The notes under the pieces were generated by a model that was not told where the DNA came from, searched no databases, and saw only the letters and a program-made list of their open reading frames with translations. From a virus (Duplodnaviria; Caudoviricetes): a stretch of DNA of 64,000 nucleotides. The position numbers and the translations under genes were made by a program. The DNA is taken from IMG/VR virus record IMGVR_UViG_3300021432_000002, positions 124 to 64,123 of that record; one strand, given 5' to 3'. Position 1 is the stretch's first letter. Every line of letters starts with the position of its first letter. Shown here piece after piece: positions 12,756-57,677 of the stretch.

Positions 12756-13513
12756 CTATGATAAAAAGGCTGGCCTTATATATCCTGCTGTCTCTGCTCC
12801 CGTCTCCCTTGATGGCGACGCTTGCCGTGGTCCAAGCCGCCAACAATCTATCCACCGCAGCCACCGCCACGACGATTACCGTGACGACCACTTCTGGCAA
12901 TCTGTTGGTCATTCTCGCCGCCGAGGGCGCGAACAATACCGCGACCGTGACCATCTCCGACAGCGCATCGCAGACTTGGACGCAGGTTGGCGGCTATATC
13001 AGTCCGAATACGTCCAGCCGCACATCCATGTGGTATATCCCAAACTCAGCGAGTGTGACGAGCATCACCGCGACATGGAGCAACAATCCTGGCTCACTGA
13101 GCACAACCGTCCGCGCGGTCATGTATGAAATCTCCGGTGCGGCGACAGCCTCTCCGCTCGAAACCTCCAATACCTCCAGCAGCGCGAGCGTCGCGACGAC
13201 CCTGACTACCGGAGCCATCACAACCTCGAATGCCAACGACATTCTCATCGACGGAACCAACGTGGGCGCCAATCAAGGCACCACTTGGTCCACTGGCGCT
13301 GGCTTCACCTTGCCGTCAAATTCCACGAACGATCGCGTGGCGATGTCCTATCAAGTCGTCTCGGCTACGCAGTCCAGCATAGCGACCTCGATAAGCTGGA
13401 CGAGCACCGCGACTTCCTGTGTCAGCATTTTCGCCGCGTTCAAGGCGTCGTCCGGCGGAGCCGCGAGTGCTGGAGCGAACACTCAAAGGAAGCGGGAGCG
13501 GATAGATGACTAG
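12752..13513 (+). CDS. Secreted Ser/Thr-rich beta-sandwich protein (fibre accessory or tip?)
   Basis: Signal peptide ending LMA; GNLLVI..A and YEISGA motifs; ATGA coupling to the fibre gene. Confidence 0.7.
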   Translation: MTMIKRLALYILLSLLPSPLMATLAVVQAANNLSTAATATTITVTTTSGNLLVILAAEGANNTATVTISDSASQTWTQVGGYISPNTSSRTSMWYIPNSASVTSITATWSNNPGSLSTTVRAVMYEISGAATASPLETSNTSSSASVATTLTTGAITTSNANDILIDGTNVGANQGTTWSTGAGFTLPSNSTNDRVAMSYQVVSATQSSIATSISWTSTATSCVSIFAAFKASSGGAASAGANTQRKRERIDD

Positions 13514-21201: not shown

Positions 21202-24200
21202 TTTCACTAGAGAACGCAAGGGCGAGACGTTCGAGTTCCTCGGCATGAAGCTGAACAGCCGACCCGATACCCTTCCTCCGGGGAAGTATCCAATGGCCGT
21301 CAACGTGCGCTCCTACACGGGTTCGAGCGTCCGCACCCGCCCCGGCCTTACGCAGTATGGCTTCGTGACTGGAGTCTCTAACAAGTGGGCGACGGACATG
21401 CGCGCCTACGTGCAGCTCCTCAGCGACAACAAGCCGCGGCTGCTGACGCGCAACGCCGACGACACCATATGGCTTCCGGATAACGCATCGCAGGTAGGCG
21501 TTCTCGCTGGCGGCGGCGCGTCGCTCGGCGCGTCGATGATTCCCTTCCGCCCGAACCAGTCGCCGAACCCGTGGATGTACATCGCCAACGGCTCGGACTA
21601 CCAAAAGTTCTCCGCTCCGGCTACGGCTAGCGTGGTGACACAGCAAAAGGTTGGAATCGCGGAACCGCAATCAGCGCCGGATGCGGTCATTGACAACTAC
21701 CTTGCGGTAGGACAGTTCACGGCGGCGGTTAGCTGGATTGCGGGAGGCACGACGGCGGCGTCCGCCAACGGTGTACGCGTGGCCGATACCGCTGGCGTGG
21801 TGATTGTGGACCCCACGCCCGGATCGACCACATGCAGCATCCAAGTCGCCAACACCGCAGGCTATCAGCGGGGAATGTTCCTCATCATCAACAATGTGAC
21901 GCAGTTCCTCGTACAAGACGTGTTCCCCCCGTTCGCCGCCGCCTTCGCCATCTCTAGCCTCTACTACTTCTCCGGCACCGCGGGACATTGCGTGCTCGTT
22001 CCCGCAGGACTCGGCAGCGGACCTGGCAACGCCGACTCATCCATCTATCTCCAGAACTTTCTTTCCAGCGTGCGCCGCGGAGCGCTCATCAAAATAGGAA
22101 CCGAAGTATGCCTCGTCTGGAGCGTCGCCACGGGGCCGGACGGCACGGTAGCCATCGAAACGTCCACGGTCAACGCGCATGTGGCGGCGGATGGCATCAC
22201 AAGCGTTCCGGCGATTCAGGTTCGCGGCAACGGCGCGGCTCCGACCATTCCGGTCGTAGGGCAGAGTATATCGTCCTTAGATGTCACTTACGCGGTGACT
22301 GCGGGCATTGGAACGCAGACCGCGACGCTGGCCGCCAACCCCTTCCTGTTCGGCGGCTCGGTCCTGCAATTCGATGATTACATCTCCATCGGTATCCGCA
22401 CCGATGTCCCCACGAACCTGACGGAGATGAAGTTTCTCATCGACGTGGACGACGGCACGTTCACCAAGAACTTTTATTACTACACGGTCCGCGCCTCGGA
22501 CCTCGCGTCCGCCATAGCGAATGCCATCTCGCAAATCGCCGCCGCACAGACGGTCGCACAGCGCGCCATCGTGGACGAGGAAAACGCCATCGCGTCGGGG
22601 AATCAAGGCGTCACGTACTCCGGGGCGCAGGACGTGACCGGCGCGAATCAGTGGGCGCAGATTGTATTTTCCATCAACGAAATGACCCGTGTGGGGAACG
22701 ACCAGACGAAATCCCTCCAGACCGCGACGAAGATTCAATTCCTATGGAACGCCAACGGAAGCCTGAATGTGGCGCACGACCAAGCCTTCCTCGCGTTCGG
22801 CACGGGTCAGCCAGATGTCGGCGCGGTCGGCGCTCCTTACCTTTATCGCGTCCGTCCGCGTTCCAGCGTCACGGGCGTTCGCGGGAACCCATCTCCTCCG
22901 ACGCGGTACGGAGTGAATCCACGCCGCCAGCAGGTGCGGGTTTCGCTCCCGAGCGCGGCTTATGACCCGCAGATTGACACCTGGGACATCGAACGATATG
23001 GCGGGACTGTGACTTCATGGCGATTCGTTGGCTCTATTCCCACCACCCTCTCCACGTTCATAGACAATTTCAGCGATGAAGCCGTGGGCGCGGGGGAGGA
23101 ATTGGATTTCGACAACTTCGAGCCGTGGCCCTCCATTGACCTGCCCCTCGTCGCGGTAGCGAACAGCGTCACCGGAACGACGGCCTTGGTTGTCATCGCG
23201 GCTCCCATCGCCGCGCACGTCCTGAACTTCCTTCCTGGTAATCTGGTGAAAATCGGAGGGCAGAACGTTTACACGCTGTACAAGCGTCCCGTGCTTATCT
23301 CCGGCACCACTTACCGTTTTGAGTTCGTGGAGAACGCAGGCAGCGCGGTTGGCCCGGTCCTCATAAACATCTACGAGCCGGAGTTCGCCAATCAATCGCT
23401 TCCGTATATGTGGGGACCGGACGTTTCCGGCACGGTGTTCGCGGTCGGCGATCCGCTCCGCCCCGGGACGCTCTACTTCGCCAAGCCCAACAATCCGGAT
23501 TCTGCGCCGGACTCGTTCAATATCGAAATCACTCCGCCATCCGAGCCTCTGCTGGGGGGCGAGGTCATGGATGGCTTGTCCTTCGTCGGCTCAACGGAGC
23601 GCTGGTGGGCCTTGTATCCGCAGCCGGACAATCCAACTCAACGGTATAACTTCGTCCAGCAGCCGTTCCCGCGCGGAATCGCAGCACCGTTCGGGCATTG
23701 CAACGATGGACAATCGCTCTACTGGTGGGCCAAAGATGGCATCCAATCATCCTCCAAGGGTTCACTCACGGACGATGACCTCTATAATCTCTTCCCGCAT
23801 GAGGGCGTCGTTGGTCAGCAGGTGACTTATAACGGAACTATAGTTCAAGCACCTGATTATACGCGTGCCCCCACGTTCCGGCTATCATATTCCAATGGTT
23901 ACCTCTACGCGACTTATCAGGACTTGGGAGGTACATTCCGGCAGCTCACCCTCAATCTCCGGACAATGGCTTGGGTTGCGGACGTCTACCCGACCCAAGT
24001 GAGCAATATCTATCACGTCGAGCAGCAAGCGGAATCCTCCGCCGTGCTCAATCCTGTGACGCTCGTCGCTGGCCGTGCGGCTATCGGCGGAACGCAGGGA
24101 GCCATCTTCAAGCAGTCCGATTTGACGAACGACGGCACGACTCCCATTGCTTGCACACTCGCGGTACGTGAATTCGATGGCGGTGACGCCCGCGCCCCGA

Positions 24201-24823
24201 AGCAATGGGGCGATTTCTTCCTCGACCTCCTGCCTGCAGCGGTCGCAGGCGTCGTAGCCACGCCGATGTCGCTCGGCGCTCAGGTGGTTGCGCCCACGAC
24301 TATCCCGACTGGCGCCGCCCGCGCCCGCCTGCCCGTGAGCATGGGAGGCTCGCCTGTCGTCTCGGACTTCATGGGCCTCATGCTCCAGTGGACCGACGAC
24401 TTCACCACGCAGACCAAGCCGACGCAATTATTCCTGTGGCAGCCGAGCTACGACATCCAGCCGGCGCGGACTATCGGCTGGCTCACCTTCGGGACTTCTT
24501 TTGGATTAAAAGGATTCATGCACATCCCGCAAATATCAATCGCCTGGGTAAGCACGGCTCCCATCACGCTCACGATCACGACGGTCGATGGGCAGTCGCC
24601 GCAGGTCATTACCATCCCGTCGTCGGGGGGCGTCTACCAGAAGGCTCTGTTCCGAGTGAGCGCGAACAAGGGACAACTGTACGTGTTCGCGGCATCCTCG
24701 TCCGCGCCGTTTCAAATCTTCGAGGATGACATCGAGATTTTAGTGGGCCAGTGGGGGCGCGACGGCGACTATCTAATCGCCAAGAGTTTCGGAGGTTCCG
24801 CAAGTGCCCAAAGCCCAATCTGA
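21194..24823 (+). CDS. Tail nozzle/stabilisation protein (P22 gp10/T7 gp12-like position)
   Basis: About 1200 aa, beta-rich; RTRPG near the N-terminus and LYFAKP..PDS; between adaptor and ejection genes; probable CTG start at 21194 (first ATG at 21245). Confidence 0.6.
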   Translation: MGDFTRERKGETFEFLGMKLNSRPDTLPPGKYPMAVNVRSYTGSSVRTRPGLTQYGFVTGVSNKWATDMRAYVQLLSDNKPRLLTRNADDTIWLPDNASQVGVLAGGGASLGASMIPFRPNQSPNPWMYIANGSDYQKFSAPATASVVTQQKVGIAEPQSAPDAVIDNYLAVGQFTAAVSWIAGGTTAASANGVRVADTAGVVIVDPTPGSTTCSIQVANTAGYQRGMFLIINNVTQFLVQDVFPPFAAAFAISSLYYFSGTAGHCVLVPAGLGSGPGNADSSIYLQNFLSSVRRGALIKIGTEVCLVWSVATGPDGTVAIETSTVNAHVAADGITSVPAIQVRGNGAAPTIPVVGQSISSLDVTYAVTAGIGTQTATLAANPFLFGGSVLQFDDYISIGIRTDVPTNLTEMKFLIDVDDGTFTKNFYYYTVRASDLASAIANAISQIAAAQTVAQRAIVDEENAIASGNQGVTYSGAQDVTGANQWAQIVFSINEMTRVGNDQTKSLQTATKIQFLWNANGSLNVAHDQAFLAFGTGQPDVGAVGAPYLYRVRPRSSVTGVRGNPSPPTRYGVNPRRQQVRVSLPSAAYDPQIDTWDIERYGGTVTSWRFVGSIPTTLSTFIDNFSDEAVGAGEELDFDNFEPWPSIDLPLVAVANSVTGTTALVVIAAPIAAHVLNFLPGNLVKIGGQNVYTLYKRPVLISGTTYRFEFVENAGSAVGPVLINIYEPEFANQSLPYMWGPDVSGTVFAVGDPLRPGTLYFAKPNNPDSAPDSFNIEITPPSEPLLGGEVMDGLSFVGSTERWWALYPQPDNPTQRYNFVQQPFPRGIAAPFGHCNDGQSLYWWAKDGIQSSSKGSLTDDDLYNLFPHEGVVGQQVTYNGTIVQAPDYTRAPTFRLSYSNGYLYATYQDLGGTFRQLTLNLRTMAWVADVYPTQVSNIYHVEQQAESSAVLNPVTLVAGRAAIGGTQGAIFKQSDLTNDGTTPIACTLAVREFDGGDARAPKQWGDFFLDLLPAAVAGVVATPMSLGAQVVAPTTIPTGAARARLPVSMGGSPVVSDFMGLMLQWTDDFTTQTKPTQLFLWQPSYDIQPARTIGWLTFGTSFGLKGFMHIPQISIAWVSTAPITLTITTVDGQSPQVITIPSSGGVYQKALFRVSANKGQLYVFAASSSAPFQIFEDDIEILVGQWGRDGDYLIAKSFGGSASAQSPI

Positions 24824-34940: not shown

Positions 34941-35423
34941 TTAAACCTTTGCCTCCAGCACGAAACAGGCCACATGCCTACCAGTTCCCTTGCCAGCAGA
35001 TCCGTCCTCCGTCGCGGTCCAGCGCACATCCCCAAGATTCGTAACTTTCGCACCTGCCGCCAAGAGCATCAGCACCCATTTGTCAATCGGATAGACGAGC
35101 ACGACGCGCTTCCCTTTCGCGTTCTCTAAAATCGCCTTCCTCGCCCATGCGGTCGGCCCCTTCTTTTTACCCTGATGCATCACGGATCCAAACGGCGGAT
35201 TGACGTAATTCGATTGGCCCCATTCACAGGTGAGCCCGTCGAATCCGTCCGGCTGAGGATACGGGCATGGGTCAAAGTCGAATGAATACTGCGCGTCAAG
35301 TCGAGCGTAGAGATCCGCTGGCGTAAGCCAATAATGTTTCCCGTCAGCAGAATTGCCACTGTGGAACTTGTTATCGCCTACCCATCCCCTAAATTTGCGC
35401 GTGCTCTTCAACCGCTCTCCCAT
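34941..35423 (-). CDS. Phage Dam-family DNA N6-adenine methyltransferase
   Basis: WLTP..LY..LD...FDFDPC and YVNPPF motifs. Confidence 0.8.
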   Translation of the reverse strand: MGERLKSTRKFRGWVGDNKFHSGNSADGKHYWLTPADLYARLDAQYSFDFDPCPYPQPDGFDGLTCEWGQSNYVNPPFGSVMHQGKKKGPTAWARKAILENAKGKRVVLVYPIDKWVLMLLAAGAKVTNLGDVRWTATEDGSAGKGTGRHVACFVLEAKV

Positions 35424-35917: not shown

Positions 35918-38911
35918 TCATGCGCCCGCACTCACTCTCGCACCAGCCTTCAACTCAATCTCCCGCATTGCATCCCATGAGCGGCCCCAAGAGCCCTCGA
36001 CGCCGATCACCAAGCCTTCGGGGGCGATGGTGGGATGCTTCAGCACCTTTGACGGCGCGGACAGCACCGCATTGACTTCCTCCGCGTGTTCCGCCAGCAA
36101 CCGTTCAGGGAATCTAAACTGGAGACTGTCGTGGATTTGATTGAACATTTTATACTTGTGAGCCAGTCCCAACTTGTCGAGTTCCTTCATCCTCGCCCGC
36201 ATCTCGCAGTGCGCGATGTTCGTATGCCGATAGCTGACCGCCTCCTCTGATTGGTCCCCAGGGGGCGGCTCGTCCTCTGGCGAACGCTGCCAGCGCTTCG
36301 AGAAGTTATAGACTTCGTAGAATCGCCGCGCGAATCCCCAGTGCTTGCTGTAGTATCCTCGGTCGCCCGCGTCGTGCGCCGCTCGCCGCTCGGCTCGTTG
36401 ATAAGCGAATATCTTGGGAGCCAGCTTGCGGATCGCGGCCATGATTTCGTAGATGGTCCTCAAACCGGAGACGAATCCGACTCCCTTACAGTTCGGGCAA
36501 ATCTTCAATCCTCTGACTCCCTGAACCTTCTTGCCCCCAGAACACTCCTTGCAGGTCTGAGGCGGGAAATCCTCCATGTACCTCTCCCACATCCCTTTCT
36601 CTTGCAGACCATTCCCGATCCCAAGAGTACATCGCTTGAACTGGCCGTCACGTTTGTTCTTCCATTCGGGATTAGACTTCAGCCATTTGAAGCGGGCCAT
36701 TAGTTGCTCGTCGGACTCCTTGAGGATTTCAAATCCGTTCCATAGATTAAGAACGTGGCCGGCGAAAAAGGAGTGCATGTCCAGCCGCGCGAGACGCATC
36801 CATACGGGATCTTCGGCGAGGAAGCCGAGAGTGAGAACATGGAATGATTTATAATCCCATTCCGCCAGAATTTCCCCTTCGGGCGCCCTGACCATCGCAC
36901 GCATGGCCTTTGCAATCTCTGGCGTCGGCTTCAACTTCGGAAAATTTTGTGAGTCGGGATTTTTAGAAGTGAGCTGGCCCATGCTCGTACCAAATCCAAA
37001 CGTAGGATGGACGCAGCCGTCCGGCCCAGGCTTGAAGCCTTCGATATAAGTTCCACGCATTTTGGTGTAGCCACGATACTCGATGACCTTCAGGTAGAAC
37101 GAGTCTCCCGTCTTGTTGGCGAGGCGCCGGAGTTCCTTCTCGCCGGTGGTATCCTTCTGATTCCCCTCGTCATCCTCCTCCTTCGATTTGGGGATGGGAT
37201 GCTTCTTGGCCTTCATGTACTCAATAACCTGATTGCGCGAGTTGGGGTTGAAATCGTAGACGCGGCACCATCTCCCGACCTTAACTATCTTCAAGTTGTC
37301 GTCTGGAATGTCGAAGGCACGATGCTCGTAGTGGTACCACTCTGGGTCGTCTCCAGAATCATGGAAGCGTTCCTTCATTTGGAGCGGCATTAACTCGCCC
37401 CACGCTTCCAAGTTATTATCCACTCGCCACTTCTTTACTTCTGGAGGCTCCCCTTTATAACCCTCTTTGGGATGCACCCTACAGCACTCCCTCGGTGCCA
37501 GCCCGCTCAACTCCTTCCCTAGCGCCCCCTGCGCCAGCTTGAACTCCACATCCAGCGCCAGCCGCGCCGAGTCGTCAATCGGCACCCCGCGATCCTCCAT
37601 CGCCGCGAGCACCGGGCGGACCTCCATCACCTGCCCGACGTAGCCGATGTCGTGGTCGCCCCACAACTGGTCGCGGCGGAGCGTCTTTTCCAGCATCGTG
37701 TAGAGGCGTAACGTGGCGTCCACGTCGCAGCAGCCGTAGAATTCGATGTCGCTCGCCGCCAGATGCTTCCACGGGAACGGGAACTGCACGAAGGACGCCG
37801 CGAATTGCAGGTGCGCGGGGAGGTCCGGCTGCCAGTGGTGGAACATTTGCAGGGTGTCATGGATGACTCCACGCGGATTGAGGTCTAGCCCTTCGCGCTC
37901 CCCTGCGGCCCGGAGGACTTTGTTGTCGAAAAGCCAGACGTTGTGGCCGCATTTCACATTGGGGGTGTGGAGTACTCGGCGAGCGACTTCTCGATACTCT
38001 CCTTCCCACGATAGAGCAATCGCCATCCCTCCTCCAACTGAGAATTGAATGAGCCGGATGTTGGTATCTGTAAATCCTTCTCTAGCATCTTCGTCAAGGT
38101 TTGTAGACTCTGAAGTCTCAATGTCGTACGAAACAACAAGTCCACTATTCCCCTCAACTCGTGAAGCAAAATCTCGCGCTTCGTCAACGCTAGGATGTAC
38201 CTGATATCTGAGCTGTCCATTCCAAGTCTCCTCTTGCTCCGGGTCCACTCCCCACAGCCATCCTCCCGCACTACCATTAGGGAGCCAAATATCTGTTCCT
38301 TTGGCAATGTTCATCGCCCGCTGGAGGATGCGCGCGAACACGCCCTGGTGGGAAGCCTTGCCGCGACGCAAGAACGCAGGATGGAAGTCTCCTATGACCG
38401 GAATCTCTGGATGAAGGGAAGTAACCGTACCGATATTCCCGCCATACGAGATGCGACTCTGAAGGGGGAGGACATATCCCGCCAGATGCGAGATGCCCTG
38501 CGCGTCCCCCGCCATGCCCGTCAATTCCCTGAGTGCGACCCCACCGAGCGCCACGATACACCTCGGCCTGCGCTCGGCTATCGCGGCGTCGAGGTTCGGG
38601 CGGCAGTGATTAATCATAGAGTACTCATGCGGAGCGCCTTCGAGCCAGTTCCGGCGAGGACGGCAGCGGACCACGTTAGTCACTGAGAGGGTTTGGCGGT
38701 CAATCCCCATTCTCCGTAGCACTCGTTCAAAAACGGAACCCGCAGGCGCGTAGGGGCGCAGCGGTAGCTGGTCACGCGCTTCCATCTCCCCGCTTGCTTC
38801 CGCGACAACCAGCACGCCGGATGAGCCCGTACCTTCTATCTGCGAGAAGTCCGTGCCCATATCGCGGCCTACGCAGCCGTTACAGGAATTAGGTTTTGCT
38901 CTTTGACTCAC
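35918..38911 (-). CDS. Family A DNA polymerase with N-terminal family-4 uracil-DNA glycosylase domain, 3'-5' exonuclease and Zn-finger insertion
   Basis: UDG: CxxC, VAEASG, TNVVRCRP, FHPAF; exonuclease: YDIET, GHN..FD, YG..D; polymerase: WDYKSFH, KRCTLGIGNG, QIHDS. Confidence 0.9.
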   Translation of the reverse strand: MSQRAKPNSCNGCVGRDMGTDFSQIEGTGSSGVLVVAEASGEMEARDQLPLRPYAPAGSVFERVLRRMGIDRQTLSVTNVVRCRPRRNWLEGAPHEYSMINHCRPNLDAAIAERRPRCIVALGGVALRELTGMAGDAQGISHLAGYVLPLQSRISYGGNIGTVTSLHPEIPVIGDFHPAFLRRGKASHQGVFARILQRAMNIAKGTDIWLPNGSAGGWLWGVDPEQEETWNGQLRYQVHPSVDEARDFASRVEGNSGLVVSYDIETSESTNLDEDAREGFTDTNIRLIQFSVGGGMAIALSWEGEYREVARRVLHTPNVKCGHNVWLFDNKVLRAAGEREGLDLNPRGVIHDTLQMFHHWQPDLPAHLQFAASFVQFPFPWKHLAASDIEFYGCCDVDATLRLYTMLEKTLRRDQLWGDHDIGYVGQVMEVRPVLAAMEDRGVPIDDSARLALDVEFKLAQGALGKELSGLAPRECCRVHPKEGYKGEPPEVKKWRVDNNLEAWGELMPLQMKERFHDSGDDPEWYHYEHRAFDIPDDNLKIVKVGRWCRVYDFNPNSRNQVIEYMKAKKHPIPKSKEEDDEGNQKDTTGEKELRRLANKTGDSFYLKVIEYRGYTKMRGTYIEGFKPGPDGCVHPTFGFGTSMGQLTSKNPDSQNFPKLKPTPEIAKAMRAMVRAPEGEILAEWDYKSFHVLTLGFLAEDPVWMRLARLDMHSFFAGHVLNLWNGFEILKESDEQLMARFKWLKSNPEWKNKRDGQFKRCTLGIGNGLQEKGMWERYMEDFPPQTCKECSGGKKVQGVRGLKICPNCKGVGFVSGLRTIYEIMAAIRKLAPKIFAYQRAERRAAHDAGDRGYYSKHWGFARRFYEVYNFSKRWQRSPEDEPPPGDQSEEAVSYRHTNIAHCEMRARMKELDKLGLAHKYKMFNQIHDSLQFRFPERLLAEHAEEVNAVLSAPSKVLKHPTIAPEGLVIGVEGSWGRSWDAMREIELKAGARVSAGA

Positions 38912-39628: not shown

Positions 39629-39849
39629 GCATTAGTCTGAGTCTCGCAGAAATCAGCAATGACACGTAGACATCCAGGATCGTAGAGAGTCTCCTGAGAT
39701 GGAAAGAAGCAATACTTGCGCCACGCTCCATGAAACTTTACTTGTCCGAGCACACTTCCACCTGTAGAGGGAGCCACATACCACGTATCAGTCTTTCGGT
39801 CAGGCGGACGAGTAAGTAATTGAAATTGTATAAATGCGCTCATAACCAT
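39613..39849 (-). CDS. Conserved small phage protein
   Basis: LG.V.F...WRKYCFFP...T.Y...CL..I..F pattern. Confidence 0.6.
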   Translation of the reverse strand: MVMSAFIQFQLLTRPPDRKTDTWYVAPSTGGSVLGQVKFHGAWRKYCFFPSQETLYDPGCLRVIADFCETQTNAWRQK

Positions 39850-41174
39850 CTCCTGACTCTCTCATCCATCTTGACCTGCCTGACGAACGAATCCTTGTTG
39901 ATGACCACTCGCAGGCCCTCCAACGTGCGGCATCGGCTGAGGGCGACGTAGGCCATGGCGTTCCCTGAGAAGAACCTGTCGCGCATATCGACTTGCACGC
40001 GGTCCAAGCTGAGTCCTTGGCTCTTATGCACGGTACTCGCGTACGCGAGCCGCATCGGGAAGTATCTGACCTGCCCCGTCACATACCGCTTGTCCTTCGG
40101 GCGATAGTGTGGCCGCGGAAGCCAGCCCTCCCCGGCCAGCTCGCTTACCTCGTCGCCATGCCAGCCGGAAGGCTCGTCGTCCTGTGCCACTTCGCGGATT
40201 ATCCTGCCGACCGTCACGACCTTGCCCGTGCGAACGAGTTCGATGTCGAAGGTCTGCGCTTCGGCGTTCCATTGCCGGACGTAGCCGCAGTCCCCGTTCA
40301 CCATGCTGAAGTCCCGTGTGTTGGAGAGAATCATCACGTACGCGCCGATCTTCATCTCCATGCTTGGCGGTATGCCCCACTCGTGCGTCCGCTTGTTCTC
40401 GCCCCACTCGGATCGCTGCTGGCCCCAGCGCTCGCTCGTCACCTTGAACGACTGGCCGAGCACTCCCTTCAATACCTCGGCGTTGTGCCGCGATACCATG
40501 TCATTCTTGGGGAGGATGGTCGTCCCGTCGAACTCCACCACGCGAGCGGAATTCCATTTCATCCCCGCCGCGGTGAGCACTTCCGCGCACGCGCCGCCGT
40601 CGCCCATGCGCGCGTGATTGAGCGCGTCTAGGAATGGGCCTTCGCCCTGGCGCCACACCTTGTCCATTCGCACCGTATTGGAAGCGAACTCCGGCCAGCA
40701 CGCGGCAGTGAAGGCCCATTCGCCCTTCACGGGAGGGAGCTGCGCGAAGTCGCCGACGAGCAGGATGCCCATCGGCTGCTTGATGTCCGAGTAGCGGTTG
40801 GCCTCCTGCGTCGCGCGGTACAGGTAATCCAACTGAGGCTCCTCTAGCATGCTGGCTTCCTCGACGAGGAACCATTTCTTTTTGAGGGCAATTTTGTGGA
40901 GCGCGCGGGTGAGATGGCCGGAGAGGAACGCGTCGCGCATGCTCAAGGTGTCGAAGTAGCGGAGTGTGCTGTTCAGAGTCACGGCTCCGAGATTCACGCT
41001 TGCAATTCCAGTCGTGGCGGTGACGCAAGCCCACGACTCGTCCTTCTGGGCCTGCTCCATGACCCAGAAGGACTTCCCCGTGCCTGCGCGTCCGGTCCTG
41101 AACGCACAGGGGACCGGACGCTCCTCACTTAGCTCTTGGACTTCGTTGGAGACGAGTTGGGTGTCGTCGGACAT
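39840..41174 (-). CDS. Pif1/RecD-like SF1B DNA helicase
   Basis: GRAGTGKS, EEASM, GDFAQLPPV, VNGD.G, LAYASTVHKSQG, YVALSR. Confidence 0.9.
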   Translation of the reverse strand: MSDDTQLVSNEVQELSEERPVPCAFRTGRAGTGKSFWVMEQAQKDESWACVTATTGIASVNLGAVTLNSTLRYFDTLSMRDAFLSGHLTRALHKIALKKKWFLVEEASMLEEPQLDYLYRATQEANRYSDIKQPMGILLVGDFAQLPPVKGEWAFTAACWPEFASNTVRMDKVWRQGEGPFLDALNHARMGDGGACAEVLTAAGMKWNSARVVEFDGTTILPKNDMVSRHNAEVLKGVLGQSFKVTSERWGQQRSEWGENKRTHEWGIPPSMEMKIGAYVMILSNTRDFSMVNGDCGYVRQWNAEAQTFDIELVRTGKVVTVGRIIREVAQDDEPSGWHGDEVSELAGEGWLPRPHYRPKDKRYVTGQVRYFPMRLAYASTVHKSQGLSLDRVQVDMRDRFFSGNAMAYVALSRCRTLEGLRVVINKDSFVRQVKMDERVRRWL

Positions 41175-41377
41175 TCTAGTTGTATTGCCCTCGCGTTGTT
41201 CCAATCCCAAATAATCTCGGTAACTGCATCTAGCATTATTCCTCGATACATCCGTGTCAGAAGTGCGGCCTGCTCCGCGTACTTGGGGTTGTTAGCTTCG
41301 TACTTCGCGCTGAGCACTTTACTGACGATATTATCCGCAAGGGAATGAACATCGTCAGCGGTTAGCAAGTGCTTCAT
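41129..41377 (-). CDS. Hypothetical protein
   Basis: ATGA coupling. Confidence 0.5.
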   Translation of the reverse strand: MKHLLTADDVHSLADNIVSKVLSAKYEANNPKYAEQAALLTRMYRGIMLDAVTEIIWDWNNARAIQLECPTTPNSSPTKSKS

Positions 41378-42634: not shown

Positions 42635-43678
42635 CTACTTGGAACTCGTTGCGGCCCTGCCGAGCTTGGCGTCCATGCGCTCGCGCCACCCTTTGAGTTG
42701 GTCCCCCTGCCGCGCGCCCAACTCGTCCACCACATCGAGGAACGTGCCGAAGCCTTCCAGCACTTCCTCGCCCTTGATGACTGGCTCGAAGTAGCCTCCT
42801 GGGAACCTTTTCAGGAGGGCGCCGACCTGCTCCGGCGTCACTCTGGCCTTCGCCGGGAACGGTATCCCCGACGATGGATCGAGATGCTTCTTGAAGTAGA
42901 ACCGGACGGTGACATCCACCACGTCCTGCTCAATCGTTTTCGATGGGTCAGACGGGTCGGGAACCTGCTCCTTCTTGACCACCGGATAATCCTGCCCGTG
43001 GATGAGGTCCCCGACCCATGCGCCACAGTCCCGTGTCCCCTTCTTGCCCGCGATCGCGGGGCCGAAGGTCGTGGAGCGGTCGTCGTCCTCGGTCTTGCTT
43101 TCGAGCGCCGTGTAGAGGACGTACTCGACCGGGAGGGAGTTGAAATTCATCACCAAGCCATAGAGAAAGTTCTGAACGAAGCCATAATCGCCGCGGGTGT
43201 TCGAGCCGAACGACTGCGCCTGCCACTCGCCCATCACCTTGACTGCGGCACTGAAGGCCATGTTCGAGCCAGGCTTCTTCCTGTCCTCTCCGCCAACGCT
43301 AATCCCTTGATCGGGCAGGTAGCGCATGACCACTTGGGAGATGGAGGACCAGCCCTCGACCGCGATGCCGCCGATGAGGTTGTAGTCCATCGGCGTGAGA
43401 CTGATTTCGGCGGGGTCCGTTTCGAGCGGATTCTCCGGCCAGTAGCCTTGCGATATCTTCCTTAGCAGGACGAGCGGCAGATTGGCAACCTCACACCGAT
43501 ACGGGAGTATCATCCCCGCGTTCACCTCGGGAACGCAGGGGTCCCATCCGCCGCCGTCGGTCGAGAGCAGGAGCGTGGCCTTGCCAGTCTTGCGCGCGAT
43601 GTAGCGGGCGAAGTCCTTCACTTGGGAAGTTTTTCGGTTGCCGGTTGGTGTATAAATGCACCCGCTCCTAGCCATCAA
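42635..43678 (-). CDS. Sak4/AAA_24-like P-loop ATPase (annealase)
   Basis: IYTPTGNRKTS Walker A variant, IAVEGWSSI, DYG, VLYTALE, GPAIAGKK. Confidence 0.65.
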   Translation of the reverse strand: MMARSGCIYTPTGNRKTSQVKDFARYIARKTGKATLLLSTDGGGWDPCVPEVNAGMILPYRCEVANLPLVLLRKISQGYWPENPLETDPAEISLTPMDYNLIGGIAVEGWSSISQVVMRYLPDQGISVGGEDRKKPGSNMAFSAAVKVMGEWQAQSFGSNTRGDYGFVQNFLYGLVMNFNSLPVEYVLYTALESKTEDDDRSTTFGPAIAGKKGTRDCGAWVGDLIHGQDYPVVKKEQVPDPSDPSKTIEQDVVDVTVRFYFKKHLDPSSGIPFPAKARVTPEQVGALLKRFPGGYFEPVIKGEEVLEGFGTFLDVVDELGARQGDQLKGWRERMDAKLGRAATSSK

Positions 43679-44104: not shown

Positions 44105-44641
44105 TCAATCCGCCTGCGCGCCCATCGCACCATACTGTTCGGCAACAAATTCAGAATTATCCTTGTAAGGACACAACTCCATTATTTCGACCAATTCCCA
44201 CATCCACCGGAGCAGGGACTCCCAGTGTTGCTGCTGTTTCTCCTGGTTCCATGTAGAAGGAATCACCAGTGACGGCTTCTTATACCAGTGCGTTACCACC
44301 ATCCCGGTCCATTCCTTCCAGTTAGAGTTTTGCATCTTAGGCCCACGTCCGAGATGATTATGCCTCATCGCATGATGCCGCACACAAAGCCATATCACCT
44401 CCAAAGGCTTTTTATAATCATCGTGATGCGCTTCTGCTCTTGGGTTCCCACATACTTCGCAAGGCTTCTTTGTGAGTTCACCTTTTCGCAGCGCTCTTGA
44501 TACCAAATACGCAGCCTTCCGTCTACGCTCCAAGTGACTTTTTCTTTTTGTTGGCACGCTCTTTGCTCCAGTACGGGCTTCGGCAGTTTGCACAGCGTAC
44601 TGGCGCAGCCCCATCCTTGCGGGGAGTCCACTCATGTCCAC
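44105..44641 (-). CDS. Zn-finger HNH-like protein fused to a C-terminal hypothetical domain
   Basis: CEVCG....EAHHDDYKKPLEVIWLC..HH...H. Confidence 0.65.
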   Translation of the reverse strand: MDMSGLPARMGLRQYAVQTAEARTGAKSVPTKRKSHLERRRKAAYLVSRALRKGELTKKPCEVCGNPRAEAHHDDYKKPLEVIWLCVRHHAMRHNHLGRGPKMQNSNWKEWTGMVVTHWYKKPSLVIPSTWNQEKQQQHWESLLRWMWELVEIMELCPYKDNSEFVAEQYGAMGAQAD

Positions 44642-44837: not shown

Positions 44838-45062
44838 TTAATGACCTGCCGCTTGAGGTACTTCTTTCTCGGCTTTCGCATGGGCCACTCTCGGGAAGAG
44901 TACTTGGGCAATCTCGTACTTCATGGCCTCCATGAAATGCTCGACGCGGCGACAGTCCTCGGGCGACGTACCCAAATCATTTACGCCTAGTTCCGGAAGC
45001 AGCCTCGCTGCTCTGCCCGCCTCCATGAATCGCGTGACGAACGCTCCCTTGAGACGAATCAT
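44838..45062 (-). CDS. Hypothetical protein
   Basis: ATGA coupling; RBS GGAAGG. Confidence 0.55.
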   Translation of the reverse strand: MIRLKGAFVTRFMEAGRAARLLPELGVNDLGTSPEDCRRVEHFMEAMKYEIAQVLFPRVAHAKAEKEVPQAAGH

Positions 45063-46630
45063 GCGGCACCTTCCTTTTCCGGCTGATGGTGCGGCTCCCT
45101 CTTCTTGTACTCCCCCGAGCCGAGCGGATCGCGGCGAATCTCTTCTCCACCATAGCAAATTTTTACGCAAGAACAAGTAGTGGGATATTCGCAGGCGCGC
45201 CTCGTCATTGGGAACAGCACGTTTAACAGATGCCGCTTCTCCCCCTCGTCGCTCGCCGCGGCCACTCGCGCCACGCCCTCCGCCACTCTCACTTCCTGGG
45301 ATTCCACCTGCTCGATCCAGTCCCGCAGCTCGTCGTCGTTGCGGTACACGATAATGGGAGGAATGAAGATGGCGTCGAGCGGGTGCTCCTCCAAGTATCC
45401 TGTCACCTGGGCCTTGCTCGACCACCCACGTTCGGTCGTGCCGTCCTCGCCCATCGTCATCACCGATTCGTCGAGCATGGTAATCCAGTCCTTGACTGGA
45501 ATGTGCTCGAACACGGGCGCCGACTTCCAATTCTTATAATACAACTTGGAAGGCTCCCCGGTTTCCTTCACATAGTCCCAGGCGACGTTGAACTGGTCGT
45601 CGCCGGCCATCATGCCCGGATTGTGATACGCCCTCACCAATGGCGACCGCTGGCTCCTGACTTCGACGCCCAGCTTCGCACTCAATTCCTTGTCCGTCCA
45701 CCTGTCCCCCTTGAGGAGGTATTCGTAGCGGATACCCATGATGCGGGGCGGGGCCACGCAGGAGCGCAGGAACTTCCACATCTCCGCTGAAGGCGACTCC
45801 TTGCCCCATTGCCACGGCTCCAGCGGTTGCGTCTGTGCGCCTGCCCACCACTCGTTCAGACGTTTCTCGACCTCTACTCCCTCACTCAATCCCTGCATAT
45901 CCCGCTTGGCATCCTCGGCCTTCCGGCGGTCCCACTTCGCCGCCGTCTTGAAGGAGAGGATATAGAGTTGATTGGACTCGCGCTCGCGGAGGAGGGCGTC
46001 GGGGCGGGACATGAACCAAATCTGTTCCTCAATGTCCACGCGCGTTTCCATGTCGCGGTAAGACTTCTCGGCGAGGCACCATGAGCCTTCCCGCTCCACC
46101 TCCAGCACCTCGTACTGCTCCAGCAACGGCCTCAGCCTCCTCCTGGCGTACGCCCTCACTAGCCCTTCCACTAGAGCGCTCTGTTCCGCGTACAGATACT
46201 GGTCGAACTCACTCCTGGCCCGCGTGATGGTTTCCGCCGCGACGCCCGCTAGTTCCGAATCCTTCGTGGCGAGGGCGTCATTCAACTGTTGGGTCATTTC
46301 CTGTGATTCCTCGCCGATGTCGAGGGCGAGCTGGAACTGGGCGAAGTCCGCGAGTGCGGCGTTGACCGCTCGCTGCTCGATGTCCTCCATGATGGCGTCG
46401 GAGCCTAGAATCCTGTCCGGCTTGGCAGCGAATGGTCCCTGCATATCTATATTGCTAGCGCTAGTCAAAAGAGAGGCGAGCCCAACGTGAACGGAACCCC
46501 CCACCGCCAATGGCAGAGGCTTACGCCTCCCCGTTATTCCCGTCCCCGCTTCGTGATACTCCAGCCACCGGAGCCGATTGCACCGCTGGAACGCTTCCGT
46601 CCTCGACCTGTCCGTCCACACTCGCTGCAT
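45059..46630 (-). CDS. Cas4/RecB-like PD-(D/E)XK exonuclease
   Basis: FQRC.R, GGSVH..L, EVE, SRPDALL, ILSFKT, C-terminal ACEYPTTCSCVKIC. Confidence 0.75.
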   Translation of the reverse strand: MQRVWTDRSRTEAFQRCNRLRWLEYHEAGTGITGRRKPLPLAVGGSVHVGLASLLTSASNIDMQGPFAAKPDRILGSDAIMEDIEQRAVNAALADFAQFQLALDIGEESQEMTQQLNDALATKDSELAGVAAETITRARSEFDQYLYAEQSALVEGLVRAYARRRLRPLLEQYEVLEVEREGSWCLAEKSYRDMETRVDIEEQIWFMSRPDALLRERESNQLYILSFKTAAKWDRRKAEDAKRDMQGLSEGVEVEKRLNEWWAGAQTQPLEPWQWGKESPSAEMWKFLRSCVAPPRIMGIRYEYLLKGDRWTDKELSAKLGVEVRSQRSPLVRAYHNPGMMAGDDQFNVAWDYVKETGEPSKLYYKNWKSAPVFEHIPVKDWITMLDESVMTMGEDGTTERGWSSKAQVTGYLEEHPLDAIFIPPIIVYRNDDELRDWIEQVESQEVRVAEGVARVAAASDEGEKRHLLNVLFPMTRRACEYPTTCSCVKICYGGEEIRRDPLGSGEYKKREPHHQPEKEGAA

Positions 46631-48131
46631 CGTCTTTCTCCTTTGCGAACCGCAATCCCTCGCTCGAAATGTACCTGAGTTCCCGCTTGGCCCGTGTCGC
46701 CGCAACGTAGGATAAGTTTGATTCTTGCTGCCGCTCCCACGCCTGCCTCGCCCACTTCGACGGCATGTAGAGGTCCGCGTCCAATATAAAGACGCGCTCG
46801 AATTCTAGTCCCTTGCTCTTGTGCACCGTCGAGCACGTCACCATGCCCCTCATGTCCTGTGACTCCCCGAACAGGCTGTTGATATTCTGTATGAGCGTCC
46901 CGACCCCGGCGTGCGGCCCGGCCTCGTCCATGAACACCCGGATGGTGGCGAGCTTGTCGTCCAGCGAGGCAATCTTGCTCGCGTTCCCCTTCGCCCGCTT
47001 CACCTCGCGCTCGCGGTACAGCTTCAACCTGTCGTCAAGGTCCGCGATGCCGCGAGCCTTCATCTTCTCGACCAGTTTCACAAGCCCTTGGCCGATGTCG
47101 CGCCCGACGACCTTCGCCGCAATCTTGTTCCTGATGAGCAGGAACGCAATGGCGATGACCGGAGCCGAGTTCCGGCACAGGATAGCATCGCCCGGCTGGA
47201 AGCTATTGACTAGCCAGTCCTGCGCGCACTCGACAAGGCCGTCCGGAGCCGCGTCGTGATGCAGGATGTGACTAACCCAGCGCCGCGCTTCCTTCACGAC
47301 GGCTTTGGGGCAGCGGTAGGAGACAGAGAGGGGAAGCCTGTGGCAGTTGAATCGCTCCTGTAAGAGTTCCATAGAGTCGTGCATCGCGCCGCGAAAGCCA
47401 TAGATGGACTGGTTGGGGTCGCCCACGACGACCACGCGCGTCTTATCGTGTCGCATCCGGCTCACAATCTCGGCCTGAATCCCATTCACATCCTGCGCCT
47501 CATCGACGAACACCACATCGGCCTTCTCGAACTCCACTCCCGCGATGATCGGCATGTAGAGCATGTCGTCGAAGTCAATCACGTCCTTGGCCCTGGCGAT
47601 GCTGGCGACCAGAACCTTCCGCACAAGGTCGAGATCCACCTCATCCGGATCAATATCATAGCGGTCGAACGCCTCCTCCCAGTTATCGAGCGTGTCCTGG
47701 GCGAGTCCGTGATACTGACCCTCCAATCCCTTCGGTACGAGCCCTCCCCCTTTGGCCAGCCCGACCAGCTTTGACATGGCCTGCGTCCACTCGCCCCAGC
47801 CCAATTCCATCTCATCCACGATGCCCCGGACCTTCTTGCCGTCCACTTCCATGTCGTTCGAGACTTCCCAGTTCGCTCTCTTCCAAGCACTCAACCCCAA
47901 TGAGTGCAACGTCTTGCAGGATGCGTTCGGCGCGGTGACCCGCCGCTTCAACTCGTCCGCGATGCTCTTGTTGAACGCGAGGAACACGACCGACTTATCC
48001 CGTGGGACGTGATTGATGGCCTCGACGATCGTGGTGGTCTTGCCGGAGCCGGCGACCGCTTCGATGATGAGGGAGTCCTCGGTGGATTCAATGGCCGAGA
48101 AAATATCCTTTTGGTACTGGGACCACTCCAT
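46521..48131 (-). CDS. UvrD/Rep SF1A helicase
   Basis: AVAGSGKTT, LAFNK, DFDDM, VDEAQD, VGDPNQSIYGFRG, SYRCP, STVHKSKGLE, YVAATRA. Confidence 0.92.
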   Translation of the reverse strand: MEWSQYQKDIFSAIESTEDSLIIEAVAGSGKTTTIVEAINHVPRDKSVVFLAFNKSIADELKRRVTAPNASCKTLHSLGLSAWKRANWEVSNDMEVDGKKVRGIVDEMELGWGEWTQAMSKLVGLAKGGGLVPKGLEGQYHGLAQDTLDNWEEAFDRYDIDPDEVDLDLVRKVLVASIARAKDVIDFDDMLYMPIIAGVEFEKADVVFVDEAQDVNGIQAEIVSRMRHDKTRVVVVGDPNQSIYGFRGAMHDSMELLQERFNCHRLPLSVSYRCPKAVVKEARRWVSHILHHDAAPDGLVECAQDWLVNSFQPGDAILCRNSAPVIAIAFLLIRNKIAAKVVGRDIGQGLVKLVEKMKARGIADLDDRLKLYREREVKRAKGNASKIASLDDKLATIRVFMDEAGPHAGVGTLIQNINSLFGESQDMRGMVTCSTVHKSKGLEFERVFILDADLYMPSKWARQAWERQQESNLSYVAATRAKRELRYISSEGLRFAKEKDDAASVDGQVEDGSVPAVQSAPVAGVSRSGDGNNGEA

Positions 48132-48159
48132 TTTGAACCTCCTGCGACTCACCGAGTCG

Positions 48160-49406: not shown

Positions 49407-50312
49407 TCATCCCCTCCTCACCAACTCCTCGACCTCATCGAACCGCTCGGCAATCGCGGCCAGCGTCTCTCTGTGCTTTCGCTGGTTCGCGTTGGCCTCT
49501 TCCATCAAATCCTCGTCGACGATGCCCTCAATGGCCTTCCTGACCAGGGCCTCCAGCACACTCGGCTCCAGTGCGTCCAGTTCCCAACTCTCCCCTCCAA
49601 ATTCCTGAATGTAGGCCGTCGCCCGTGAGTCGGTAATCTTAGCCGGGTTGGGCGGAGGGTTGTACTTCTCTACCTGATCCATGTTCAGCGCCAGCCGCTC
49701 GAACTTCATGGCTCCGCGCGTGAACATTTCCAGACGGTCTAAAATATCCCGTGACATATCCTTGCCACTAGGGTCGTGGTCCCCGAAGTGGAACACGATA
49801 GGCGTCTGCTTTTTGCGCTTGTTCCTGAGCATTCTCTGAGCCGCACCCCACATCTCGCTCTGGCTTGTGTAACCGCGGCAGGACAAAAGAGGCACGTCCA
49901 ACTCTTCACAGACGCGCTCGAATACCCCCACTAAGGCATCCTTCTCAATCCAGACCTCCGGTCGATAAGTCTGGCCTTCCCACCTATCGATGTTGAACTG
50001 CTCGGACGTGGCGCGCACAATCTCCTCCGGCCCGGAGAAATGACTGAGCGTCCTGACCTCCCGCGTCCGGTCCACGATGGTCTCCCAGTCGATCATCCCC
50101 GCGAGCCGCGCGTCGTTCACAATGCTCCCCAAGTTTTTGTAATCCTTCTGCGTGTTGGGAATCAGGTCGCGGGAGACGAACTGGTAGTATAACTGCCGGA
50201 GCGTCAGGTCAAATCCCTGTCCCGCGTACTCCGCGATAATCTCGTTCGCTTTGGCTATCATGCCGAGCGTCGCTGGACGAAAGTTGAAATCCTTGTACTT
50301 GATCTTAGGCAT
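49407..50312 (-). CDS. Topoisomerase VI-A/Spo11-like WHD-TOPRIM protein
   Basis: TLRQLYY, ARL.G.I.W..I.D, EVWIEKDAL, RGY.S, GDHDPSG, ELDAL. Confidence 0.8.
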   Translation of the reverse strand: MPKIKYKDFNFRPATLGMIAKANEIIAEYAGQGFDLTLRQLYYQFVSRDLIPNTQKDYKNLGSIVNDARLAGMIDWETIVDRTREVRTLSHFSGPEEIVRATSEQFNIDRWEGQTYRPEVWIEKDALVGVFERVCEELDVPLLSCRGYTSQSEMWGAAQRMLRNKRKKQTPIVFHFGDHDPSGKDMSRDILDRLEMFTRGAMKFERLALNMDQVEKYNPPPNPAKITDSRATAYIQEFGGESWELDALEPSVLEALVRKAIEGIVDEDLMEEANANQRKHRETLAAIAERFDEVEELVRRG

Positions 50313-50575
50313 TAGCTTCTCTCCAATCCTTCCATCCTCAATAACTCCGTCTGAATCCGATAGCACGCTAGACAGTACAACTCCCGCCTCTTCCCACTGG
50401 CCCGGTCTACCTGCCTCCTATCCTTGCACACGCACACAATCTCATCCTCACAGGCCGAACACTGATGCGTGTGGACCTCCTGCCCGCGGTTCAACTTCTG
50501 ATACGTCTCTTCCAATAGGGATTGCAGGGCGTCGGACTCCCCTTCCTGGCGGAACGGCTGCCATTGGCCGCTCAT
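50312..50575 (-). CDS. Cys-rich hypothetical protein
   Basis: HQCSAC...CVC...CLAC; coupled to neighbours. Confidence 0.55.
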   Translation of the reverse strand: MSGQWQPFRQEGESDALQSLLEETYQKLNRGQEVHTHQCSACEDEIVCVCKDRRQVDRASGKRRELYCLACYRIQTELLRMEGLERS

Positions 50576-56684: not shown

Positions 56685-57677
56685 GTGAGTGACGAAATTA
56701 AAGGTGTGGTGCGCTACGGCGACTGCTGCGAAATCATGCGTCGCTGGATTGCGTCCGGCATCAAGGTCAATATGTGCGTGACCTCTCCGCCGTACTGGGG
56801 CTTGCGCGACTATGGCGTCAAGGGCCAGTTTGGGCTAGAGAAAACTCCTGACGAGTACGTGGCGAAGATGGTCGAAGTGTTCCGGCTGGTGCGGGAGATG
56901 TTGCAGGAGGATGGGACGCTGTGGTTAAACGTAGGGGACTCTTATAGTTCAAATGGTAAGGGTGGGCGTGACGCCGAAGTTCGCTCGCGTGGAAAAAATA
57001 TTCCGCGTGGGTCGTCTAGATGGGGAGGCGGAAACAACGAAGTCGCAGGACTGAAGTGTAAGGACTTAGTGGGCGTGCCGTGGATGTTGGCCTTCGCTCT
57101 GCGTGCCGATGGCTGGTATCTGCGGAGCGATATTATTTGGCATAAGCCTAATGCTATGCCTGAGAGCGTAAAGGATAGGCCAACGAAGGCCCATGAGTAT
57201 ATATTTTTATTAAGTAAGAACGAACGTTACTACTACGACGCAGATGCCGTCGCAGAGCCTTTTGTATTCCCAGAACGTCGCTACCGTAAGTTCACGGAAA
57301 ATCATAAGACTGGCCAACTAGCCTTACAGGGAAACCGTAGTACAACAGGGTTACATGATGGTCGAAGTCAGTATGGCGACCCTGAGATTGGCAAAAATAG
57401 ACGTACAGTTTGGAAGGTGCCCACAAAGCCTTTTTCCGGTGCCCACTTCGCAACCTTCCCTCCCGACCTCATTGCTCCCTGTATTCTCGCAGGCTCCCCT
57501 CCGCAGGGTATCGTCCTCGACCCATTCATGGGCTCCGGCACGACCGCACAGGTCGTGCTCCAACTCAATCGCCGCTATCTCGGATGCGAATTGAATCCCG
57601 CCTACGAGCCGCTCATCAACGCCCGCATCGCCAAAGTTTCACCTAAAGAGGAAGAGAAACCGATGGCCGCTGACTAG
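56685..57677 (+). CDS. Beta-class DNA amino-methyltransferase (N4-C/N6-A)
   Basis: VTSPPYW, IIWHKPN, HEYIFLL, HFATFP, VLDPFMGSGTT. Confidence 0.92.
   Translation: MSDEIKGVVRYGDCCEIMRRWIASGIKVNMCVTSPPYWGLRDYGVKGQFGLEKTPDEYVAKMVEVFRLVREMLQEDGTLWLNVGDSYSSNGKGGRDAEVRSRGKNIPRGSSRWGGGNNEVAGLKCKDLVGVPWMLAFALRADGWYLRSDIIWHKPNAMPESVKDRPTKAHEYIFLLSKNERYYYDADAVAEPFVFPERRYRKFTENHKTGQLALQGNRSTTGLHDGRSQYGDPEIGKNRRTVWKVPTKPFSGAHFATFPPDLIAPCILAGSPPQGIVLDPFMGSGTTAQVVLQLNRRYLGCELNPAYEPLINARIAKVSPKEEEKPMAAD

Follow-up and report, generated by a model that had tools for sequence, protein, structure and literature searches.

Phage family A DNA polymerases with glutamine and histidine at the TGR and steric-gate positions

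Introduction

Family A DNA polymerases (PolAs) have been sorted into 19 clusters (PMC10201439), and those of the SPO1/SP-10-like, SP15-like and N4-like phages carry a uracil-DNA glycosylase (UDG). The SP15-like group was defined in a cryo-electron microscopy study that covers YerA41 and phiLo; the UDG of these enzymes is active on template dU and is linked to thymidine-modified genomes (PMC13697223). In the phiLo polymerase, whose UDG is active, the conserved catalytic residues are E53 and H178, and SP15-like phages carry thymidine-modification, PolX and ligase genes (PMC13697223). Here we describe a fusion of UDG, 3'-5' exonuclease and PolA encoded by an uncultivated phage of the Caudoviricetes, IMG/VR record IMGVR_UViG_3300021432_000002. 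The window, meaning the whole 64,000-nucleotide stretch of DNA that was analyzed, is the complete 64,123-bp virus record, which has direct terminal repeats, minus its first 123 bases. The enzyme belongs to a large, so far undescribed PolA subfamily of uncultivated phages in which Gln and His align with the Arg and Glu that flank the sugar of the incoming nucleotide in Klenow fragment.

Models of sugar discrimination, fingers closing and fidelity center on residues of the R668, E710 and Y766 type. E710 and Y766 are called universally conserved in family A polymerases (PMC3715850), and the same source describes the two as a hydrogen-bonded pair, which backs the initial annotation of this locus, where they were said to work together and to be near-invariant. 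The TGR motif is called conserved across Klenow-fold polymerases, and even a Thr-to-Ala change within it is treated as exceptional (PMC10201439). Among the conserved positions the F762 site varies most, and Phe at the Y766 position has been called a substitution unique to the two DpoZ clusters (PMC10201439).

Results

Residues of the nucleotide pocket

Equivalent positions were numbered after the E. coli K-12 polA sequence (R668, D705, E710, K758, F762 and Y766). Motif A of the window protein reads WDYKSFHVL at residues 685–693. Both phmmer and the family profile paired its DYKSFH with DYSQIE of Taq, and local hhalign gave the pairing a posterior of 8–9. The three methods concur in placing H691 at the steric-gate site, the E710-to-His change that the initial annotation had read from the motif. 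His occupies this site in 258 of 266 aligned family rows and Glu in none (0/266); the remaining 8 are 5 gaps and 3 other residues. The alignment of motif A is secure, and the steric-gate Glu expected of a family A DNA polymerase is absent.

A further departure, overlooked by the initial annotation, lies in the TGR motif. The equivalent segment is SMGQ, which aligns Gln with R668. Gln was found at this site in 251 of the 266 rows and Arg in 2, and TGR itself is present in E. coli, SP-10 and SSP002; the window protein lacks the TGR Arg. In Bst polymerase the residues matching Q849, R668, E710 and D882 are close together and interact electrostatically (PMC10520511). Because the R668 and E710 equivalents form such an interaction there, the Arg-to-Gln change together with the Glu-to-His change is charge-neutral.

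The catalytic center is retained. A word-indexed search scored 8000 candidates, of which 287 proteins had E ≤ 0.001. The 120 listed were 48–100% identical to the window protein, and the 121 aligned rows include the window protein twice (P0001 and P0002). D686 and the H927-D928 pair were each present in 121/121 rows, in keeping with the earlier statement that motif C (QIHDS) is present and that the catalytic Asp residues are intact. Motif C spans residues 925–929 and reads HDS where canonical enzymes have HDE, a difference on which the initial annotation did not remark. H691 and L763 were likewise found in 121/121 rows, and N767 in 119/121 with Phe in the other 2.

Motif B, the O helix (RDGQFKRCTLGIGNG), includes KRCTLGIGNG at residues 759–768. 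A hidden Markov model (HMM) of the O-helix segment alone did not match E. coli PolA or T7 gp5, and the family profile produced only a spurious match (Prob 1.8) to the single T7 sequence. A canonical template was therefore taken from a MAFFT alignment of six PolAs (E. coli, T7, SP-10, SSP002, MW202455 and MW202554), to which the family profile aligned by hhalign with Prob 100 in global and 99.9 in local mode. The register was identical in both modes: R754 with R754, an extra residue at D755, K758 with K759, F762 with L763, Y766 with N767 and G767 with G768. The helix predicted by AlphaFold2 (residues 748–766) stops right before N767, in agreement with an O helix that terminates at Y766. The single register and the end of the model helix uphold the proposed F762-to-Leu and Y766-to-Asn changes with moderate, not high, certainty for motif B. 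In this register the O-helix Tyr would be an Asn. The O-helix Arg and Lys are kept, R754 and K759 being invariant in 41/41 sequences.

Breadth and variation of the family

A profile search of a library of 1.84 billion protein representatives at 50% identity gave 12,019 matches at E ≤ 0.001, 2,724 at E ≤ 1e-10 and 605 at E ≤ 1e-30. Family counts per site rest on the best 150 of the 12,019 representatives, all with E ≤ 1e-84. The E710 site held His in 142, gaps in 5 and other residues in 3. At the R668 site Gln was present in 135, with 7 gaps, 5 Ser, 2 Arg and 1 Ala. The F762 site was Leu in 109, a gap in 13, His in 11, Ala in 10 and another residue in 7, and the Y766 site was Phe in 83, Asn in 24, a gap in 17, Leu in 16, Asp in 4, Tyr in 3 and another residue in 3. 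The altered residues are not private to this phage, and at least 142 representatives at 50% identity, and probably hundreds more, lack the steric-gate Glu.

These counts redraw the initial annotation, which had presented His and Asn as a paired, compensatory change. His is fixed across a far wider family (142/150) while the Y766 site varies (Asn in 24/150), and in the test that the initial annotation had itself suggested, His and Asn did not co-vary among the homologues. What changes along with His is the TGR Arg, replaced by Gln in 135/150 representatives. The original observation is confirmed as real, and it is both stronger and broader than proposed: the change is better described as a family-wide Gln/His/Leu pocket with a variable Y766 site. 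By these alignments Gln and His, together with Leu, define the whole family, and Asn plus a four-Cys insert marks one subclade.

The subclade was recovered in a FastTree phylogeny of 230 rows, comprising 224 of 271 sequences with ≥75% coverage and 6 outgroups that were forced in. The sequences with Asn and the four-Cys insert formed one clade of 120 tips (118 Q-H-L-N and 2 Q-H-L-F) with a local support of 0.879, and the other 104 family tips were mostly Q-H-L-F. Rooting with canonical PolAs failed: the outgroups cover 7–31% of the family HMM and were scattered across the tree. Because they aligned too poorly for rooting, no direction of change between Phe and Asn is given. In IMG/VR, 38 related loci were found, most on 54–66 kb contigs. 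Of the 30 loci parsed, 29 had the His-type motif A pattern and 1 gave no match to it.

Variation at the Y766 site follows that at position 896, which lies on the next long helix. Phe occurs with Pro in 80/83 cases, Asn with Leu or His, and Leu with Val, and the mutual information between the two sites is 0.91 bits with phylogeny not controlled. This pattern suggests that the side chains of 767 and 896 pack together. Their codons lie at ~36611–36613 and 36224–36226 of the window, on the minus strand.

Eight of the 150 representatives (P0125, P0130, P0135, P0138, P0217, P0241, P0244 and P0255), proteins of 965–1717 amino acids (aa), break in motif B right after the O-helix Lys with Cys-Ile-Ala(-Glu-Gly...). 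The break looks like an intein within the nucleotide-binding helix. One close relative has Pfam PF14890 and another PF07591.

Domains and predicted fold

Pfam placed the UDG superfamily at residues 30–185 with 54.6 bits (cut-off 24.3) and DNA_pol_A (PF00476) at residues 553–722 with 64.2 bits (cut-off 34.3), the latter over profile positions 29–196 of 381 only. A second, sub-threshold DNA_pol_A match to profile positions 308–379 spans the end with motif C. With the family profile, the UDG part matched solved family-4 UDGs in the PDB at E 2.8e-19. H177, C83 and C103 of the UDG are invariant in 41 sequences and E38 is conserved in ≥90% of them, and the domain is probably active. The exonuclease residues D263, E265, D329, Y392 and D396, which form the DxE, D and YxxxD motifs, are invariant in 41/41 sequences, and the initial annotation was right that the exonuclease motifs are intact.

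An AlphaFold2 model of the whole protein, built on 41 homologues, had a mean predicted local distance difference test (pLDDT) score of 83.3 and a predicted template-modeling (TM) score of 0.79, with block pLDDT of 90–95 over motif A and the O helix. The best solved match found by Foldseek was Klenow fragment (1kfs, E 1e-22, target TM 0.73), and the match covers the exonuclease and polymerase domains. Target TM was 0.73–0.78 for the matches to Klenow, Taq, Bst and Pol theta. The predicted structure thus has the Klenow-like exonuclease and palm, fingers and thumb that place the protein in family A.

The fingers of the model carry a four-Cys insert that the initial annotation overlooked (Table 1). 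C787, C790, C805 and C808 are each conserved in ≥90% of 41 sequences, 112 of the 120 Asn-subclade tips have all four, and the model forms short strands at 795–797 and 802–804 within the insert. The segment had no counterpart in the canonical template by hhalign and is absent from Klenow, Taq and T7. It is probably a zinc ribbon.

Some homologues consist of the polymerase domain alone. Among the 120 listed, 24 are 549–597 aa long and start with MTxRGY at the exonuclease/polymerase boundary near residue 420 (for example P0018, P0052, P0071, P0116 and locus L036). These are split genes and not truncations, because some sit on 62–272 kb contigs. They resemble the exonuclease/polymerase split known in T7-like phages (PMC10201439).

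Nearest relatives

The window protein and a distant family member (P0268) were used as tblastn queries against 50,697 phage records. The nearest CHARACTERISED relatives were spread over 59 and 71 matching records, respectively. None covered ≥80% of the query, all were below 60% identical and those listed were ≤33% identical. No isolated phage was found to carry this polymerase type among these records. The best matches were other UDG-PolAs or PolAs, from two metagenomic Manatee Spring phages, SP-10 and Vibrio SSP002-like phages. When four relatives were compared by motif pattern, the steric-gate Glu was present in 4/4, TGR in SP-10 and SSP002, and a Tyr-type motif B in SP-10 and MW202455.

Structural matches in BFVD were ≤19% identical, with N4-like and Vibrio phage polymerases among the best, and ESM Atlas returned generic viral PolA clusters only. 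GTDB genomes contained 3 loci, on metagenome-assembled genome contigs of 1.0, 1.6 and 11.1 kb. Because these loci sit only on small contigs, no host was called. A literature search found no description of a His steric gate, an E710H-type mutant or Gln in the TGR motif of a family A polymerase; the Figure 3 logos or supplements of PMC10201439 might show such a residue. The terms 710, 766, histidine, uracil and steric do not occur in Nasko 2018 (PMC6302109) or Keown 2022 (PMC9069017).

Genome context

The polymerase gene sits in a minus-strand replication block (Table 1). The module is kept across the 38 related viral loci: a PIF1-like helicase was found in 32/38, a 269-aa protein in 30/38, the Sak4-like ATPase in 30/38 and the PD-(D/E)XK-type protein in 19/38. 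When all six frames of the complete 64,123-bp genome were searched with Pfam, alongside positive controls, no PolB was found, and the fusion is the only recognizable DNA polymerase of the phage. The same searches found no ThyA, ThyX or dUTPase (PF00303, PF02511 and PF00692), dCTP deaminase not having been searched for separately. In the 38 related loci, no ThyA homologue was detected up to 10 kb from the polymerase, nor was one detected in the window. Genes that replace dTTP in the nucleotide pool, as in thymidine-modified phages, were not found in these searches. Most neighboring genes were left without a name after Pfam, PHROGs and NCBIfam searches.

The neighboring 548-aa open reading frame (ORF) was considered as a primase and rejected, being of the PD-(D/E)XK type by the Pfam labels of its homologues. 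This longest ORF shares 185 bases with the UvrD-like helicase gene. The protein on record (P0269) has 461 aa, so translation probably starts further downstream. The PD-(D/E)XK protein and the UvrD-like helicase resemble a helicase-nuclease pair.

Elsewhere on the genome, the structural half contains very large ORFs at 6351–12755 (+, 2134 aa), 13506–17081 (+, 1191 aa) and 21245–24823 (+, 1192 aa). The 2134-aa and 1192-aa ORFs had no PHROG match, and the 1191-aa ORF matched a C-terminal hydrolase family only. An N6/N4 DNA methylase lies at 56685–57677 (+; Pfam E 2.2e-51), a weak Dam-like match at 34941–35423 (−; 21.3 bits, cut-off 28.1) and an HNH endonuclease at 62632–63126 (+), directly after the portal gene.

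Table 1. Positions in the window of the polymerase gene, its domains and motifs, and the neighboring replication genes
Feature	Position	Strand	Details and basis
UDG - 3'-5' exonuclease - family A DNA polymerase fusion	35918..38911	-	997 aa, GTG start; ORF translation
Family-4 uracil-DNA glycosylase domain, ~residues 5-205	38297..38899	-	LVVAE (E38), DFHP (H177), Cys 10, 13, 83, 103
3'-5' proofreading exonuclease domain, ~residues 255-415	37667..38149	-	DIET, HNVWLFD, FYGCCDVD
Polymerase domain, ~residues 420-985	35957..37654	-	Pfam; hhalign to canonical PolA, Prob 100; split-gene relatives begin at this boundary
TGR-motif equivalent SMGQ, Q646 at Klenow R668 site	36974..36985	-	hhalign posterior 9
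Motif A DYKSFH, catalytic D686, H691 aligned to steric-gate Glu (E710)	36839..36856	-	phmmer, family profile, hhalign
Motif B / O helix, R754, K759, L763 (F762 site), N767 (Y766 site), one extra residue after Arg	36608..36652	-	hhalign, model helix, conservation
CxxC...CxxC insert in fingers after helix O1, 22 residues (787-808)	36488..36553	-	Cys conservation, model, hhalign
Motif C QIHDS, H927, catalytic D928, Ser at Klenow E883 site	36125..36139	-	aligned to QVHDE (hmmsearch, hhalign)
PIF1/RecD-like helicase	39840-41210	-	
Sak4-like ATPase	42635-43678	-	
Endonuclease	44105-44641	-	
PD-(D/E)XK-type protein, 548-aa ORF	45059-46705	-	Pfam labels of homologues
UvrD-like helicase	46521-48152	-	
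Topoisomerase-like protein	49407-50366	-	

Discussion

From the anatomy, residue equivalences, conservation, fold and genome context described above, we infer a pocket geometry, an activity and a selectivity. The reading that we favor, with moderate confidence, is a working replicative and proofreading family A polymerase with a remodeled, charge-neutral nucleotide pocket in which His serves as the sugar gate and the UDG is probably active. The network that R668, E710 and Y766 form around the sugar of the incoming nucleotide would be rebuilt from Gln, His and a third residue that is Asn, Phe or Leu, while the F762 site holds Leu. An uncharged Gln-His pair would take the place of the Arg-Glu ion pair, and the His ring would lie under C2' of the incoming deoxynucleoside triphosphate (dNTP), still excluding a 2'-OH. 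Tyr or Phe gates exclude the 2'-OH in other polymerase families. N767, where the O helix ends, would close the pocket, and the helix end and position 896 would adjust around the His. As has been shown for phiLo and YerA41, the UDG would scan the template and remove uracil in front of the polymerase site. The four-Cys insert may be a DNA contact at the tip of the fingers. The retention of the catalytic and phosphate-binding residues (D686, D928, H927, K759 and R754) supports a working enzyme, as do the intact exonuclease and UDG residues, the Klenow-like fold, the strong conservation of Gln, His and Leu throughout the family and the position of the gene in a replication module kept among related viruses.

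Several points weigh on the other side. In Klenow, E710A, E710Q and Y766A are mutators whose fingers fail to close (PMC3715850), and the substitutions lie at sites where change matters. The O-helix register has an hhalign posterior of only ~6–7, which is moderate support, and the equivalents of motif 6 (N845/Q849) could not be placed (posterior ~2). The six-frame Pfam searches of the complete genome, with their positive controls, found no Prim-Pol or Toprim_2 primase.

The missing primase bears on an unlikely alternative, that the Gln/His/Asn(Phe) pocket reflects a relaxed or re-tuned sugar selectivity. Such an enzyme would incorporate ribonucleoside monophosphates or 2'-modified nucleotides, or extend RNA primers without a dedicated primase, and the family would offer a natural parallel to engineered steric-gate mutants. 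Three residues bear on sugar handling or pocket shape, and all of them are altered at once; Klenow E710A eases binding of ribonucleoside triphosphates (PMC3715850), and Y766 and F762 shape the pocket (PMC3715850, PMC10520511). The lack of a recognizable primase is the sole pointer to self-priming, and a missing Pfam match of this kind is weak evidence. A bulky His could still block the 2'-OH, however. The intact proofreading exonuclease and the DNA-specific UDG point to an ordinary DNA product, and the family is huge and supplies the sole polymerase of ~60 kb double-stranded DNA phage genomes.

Other phages with UDG-polymerases bring a different adaptation to mind, a pocket fitted to base-modified dNTPs such as 5-hydroxymethyl-dUTP, or to the exclusion of dUTP. 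Where UDG-PolAs elsewhere have an active UDG, in the SPO1/SP-10-like and SP15-like groups, their phages have modified thymidine (PMC10201439, PMC13697223), and thymidylate-synthase-like genes adjoin the polymerases of SP-10 and the metagenomic phage MW202455. We consider this explanation improbable here, given the complete genome without detected ThyA, ThyX or dUTPase and the 38 loci without a ThyA homologue near the polymerase. Those E-type relatives that copy modified DNA retain E710, as well as Y766 wherever the pattern gave a match. The altered residues contact the sugar and the floor of the pocket, not C5 of the base. A degenerate polymerase site, in a protein that acts mainly as a UDG/exonuclease or scaffold while a host polymerase copies the genome, is very improbable. 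It would account for the loss of three "universal" residues and for a Pfam match that is above threshold only at positions 29–196 of 381. D686, D928, H927, K759 and R754 are nonetheless near-invariant, and Gln, His and Leu are strongly conserved across hundreds of clusters. The apparent intein lies exactly in motif B in 8/150 representatives, and inteins typically occupy essential active sites.

If the family replicates DNA accurately, the textbook network is one solution among several. Its members would then be natural starting points for studying or engineering nucleotide selectivity. The family also extends the UDG-polymerase theme to phages without sign of thymidine modification.

Comparison with known systems

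The protein shares the exonuclease and polymerase fold, the catalytic Asp pair and the O-helix Arg and Lys with Klenow, Taq and Bst Pol I. It differs from them at R668 (Gln), E710 (His), F762 (Leu), Y766 (Asn) and E883 (Ser), and by a one-residue insertion in the O helix, the four-Cys insert and the added UDG.

Phage phiVC8-like DpoZ (PDB 7PBK) also has Leu at the F762 site and the Ser of motif C, and its O helix contains an insertion (PMC8599892). Its Phe at the Y766 site (PMC8599892) is the residue found in most of the wider His family. The departures listed for DpoZ are L455, F459 and S583, and none is named at the E710 or R668 sites (PMC8599892). DpoZ has no UDG domain, and the window protein scored 27.6 bits against NCBIfam phage_DpoZ_1, where the cut-off is 500, which places it outside DpoZ.

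The UDG-exonuclease-PolA architecture is shared with the N4-like UDG-PolAs (cluster 17, Czernecki et al. 2023). In those enzymes the catalytic residues of the UDG are gone and Phe occupies the F762 site (PMC10201439), whereas here the UDG residues are kept and Leu is present in 121/121 rows. The SPO1/SP-10-like UDG-PolAs of Bacillus phages are closer in that they combine an N-terminal family-4 UDG that has its catalytic residues with an exonuclease, a PolA and the HDS form of motif C (PMC10201439). SP-10 is only ~25% identical over residues 380–720, has the canonical TGR, DYSQLE and KAVGFGLLYG motifs without the four-Cys fingers insert, and carries a thymidylate synthase gene beside the polymerase.

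Its N-terminal family-4 UDG retains both catalytic residues, Glu and His, and the protein appears to fall among the active-UDG UDG-PolAs. No SP-15-group phage was among the tblastn matches listed, and YerA41 and phiLo were compared through their published descriptions. The UDG motifs LLVGE (E53) and LNHP (H178) of phiLo (PMC13697223) correspond to LVVAE (E38) and DFHP (H177) here. The SP15-like enzymes are described as having Insert 1, Insert 2 and a C-terminal domain of ~80 aa, YerA41 polymerase reaching 1306 aa, and an O-helix Phe that acts with a steric gate of the E710 type (PMC13697223). YerA41 and phiLo offer the likely working model for the window protein: the UDG encounters the 5' template strand before the polymerase does (PMC13697223).

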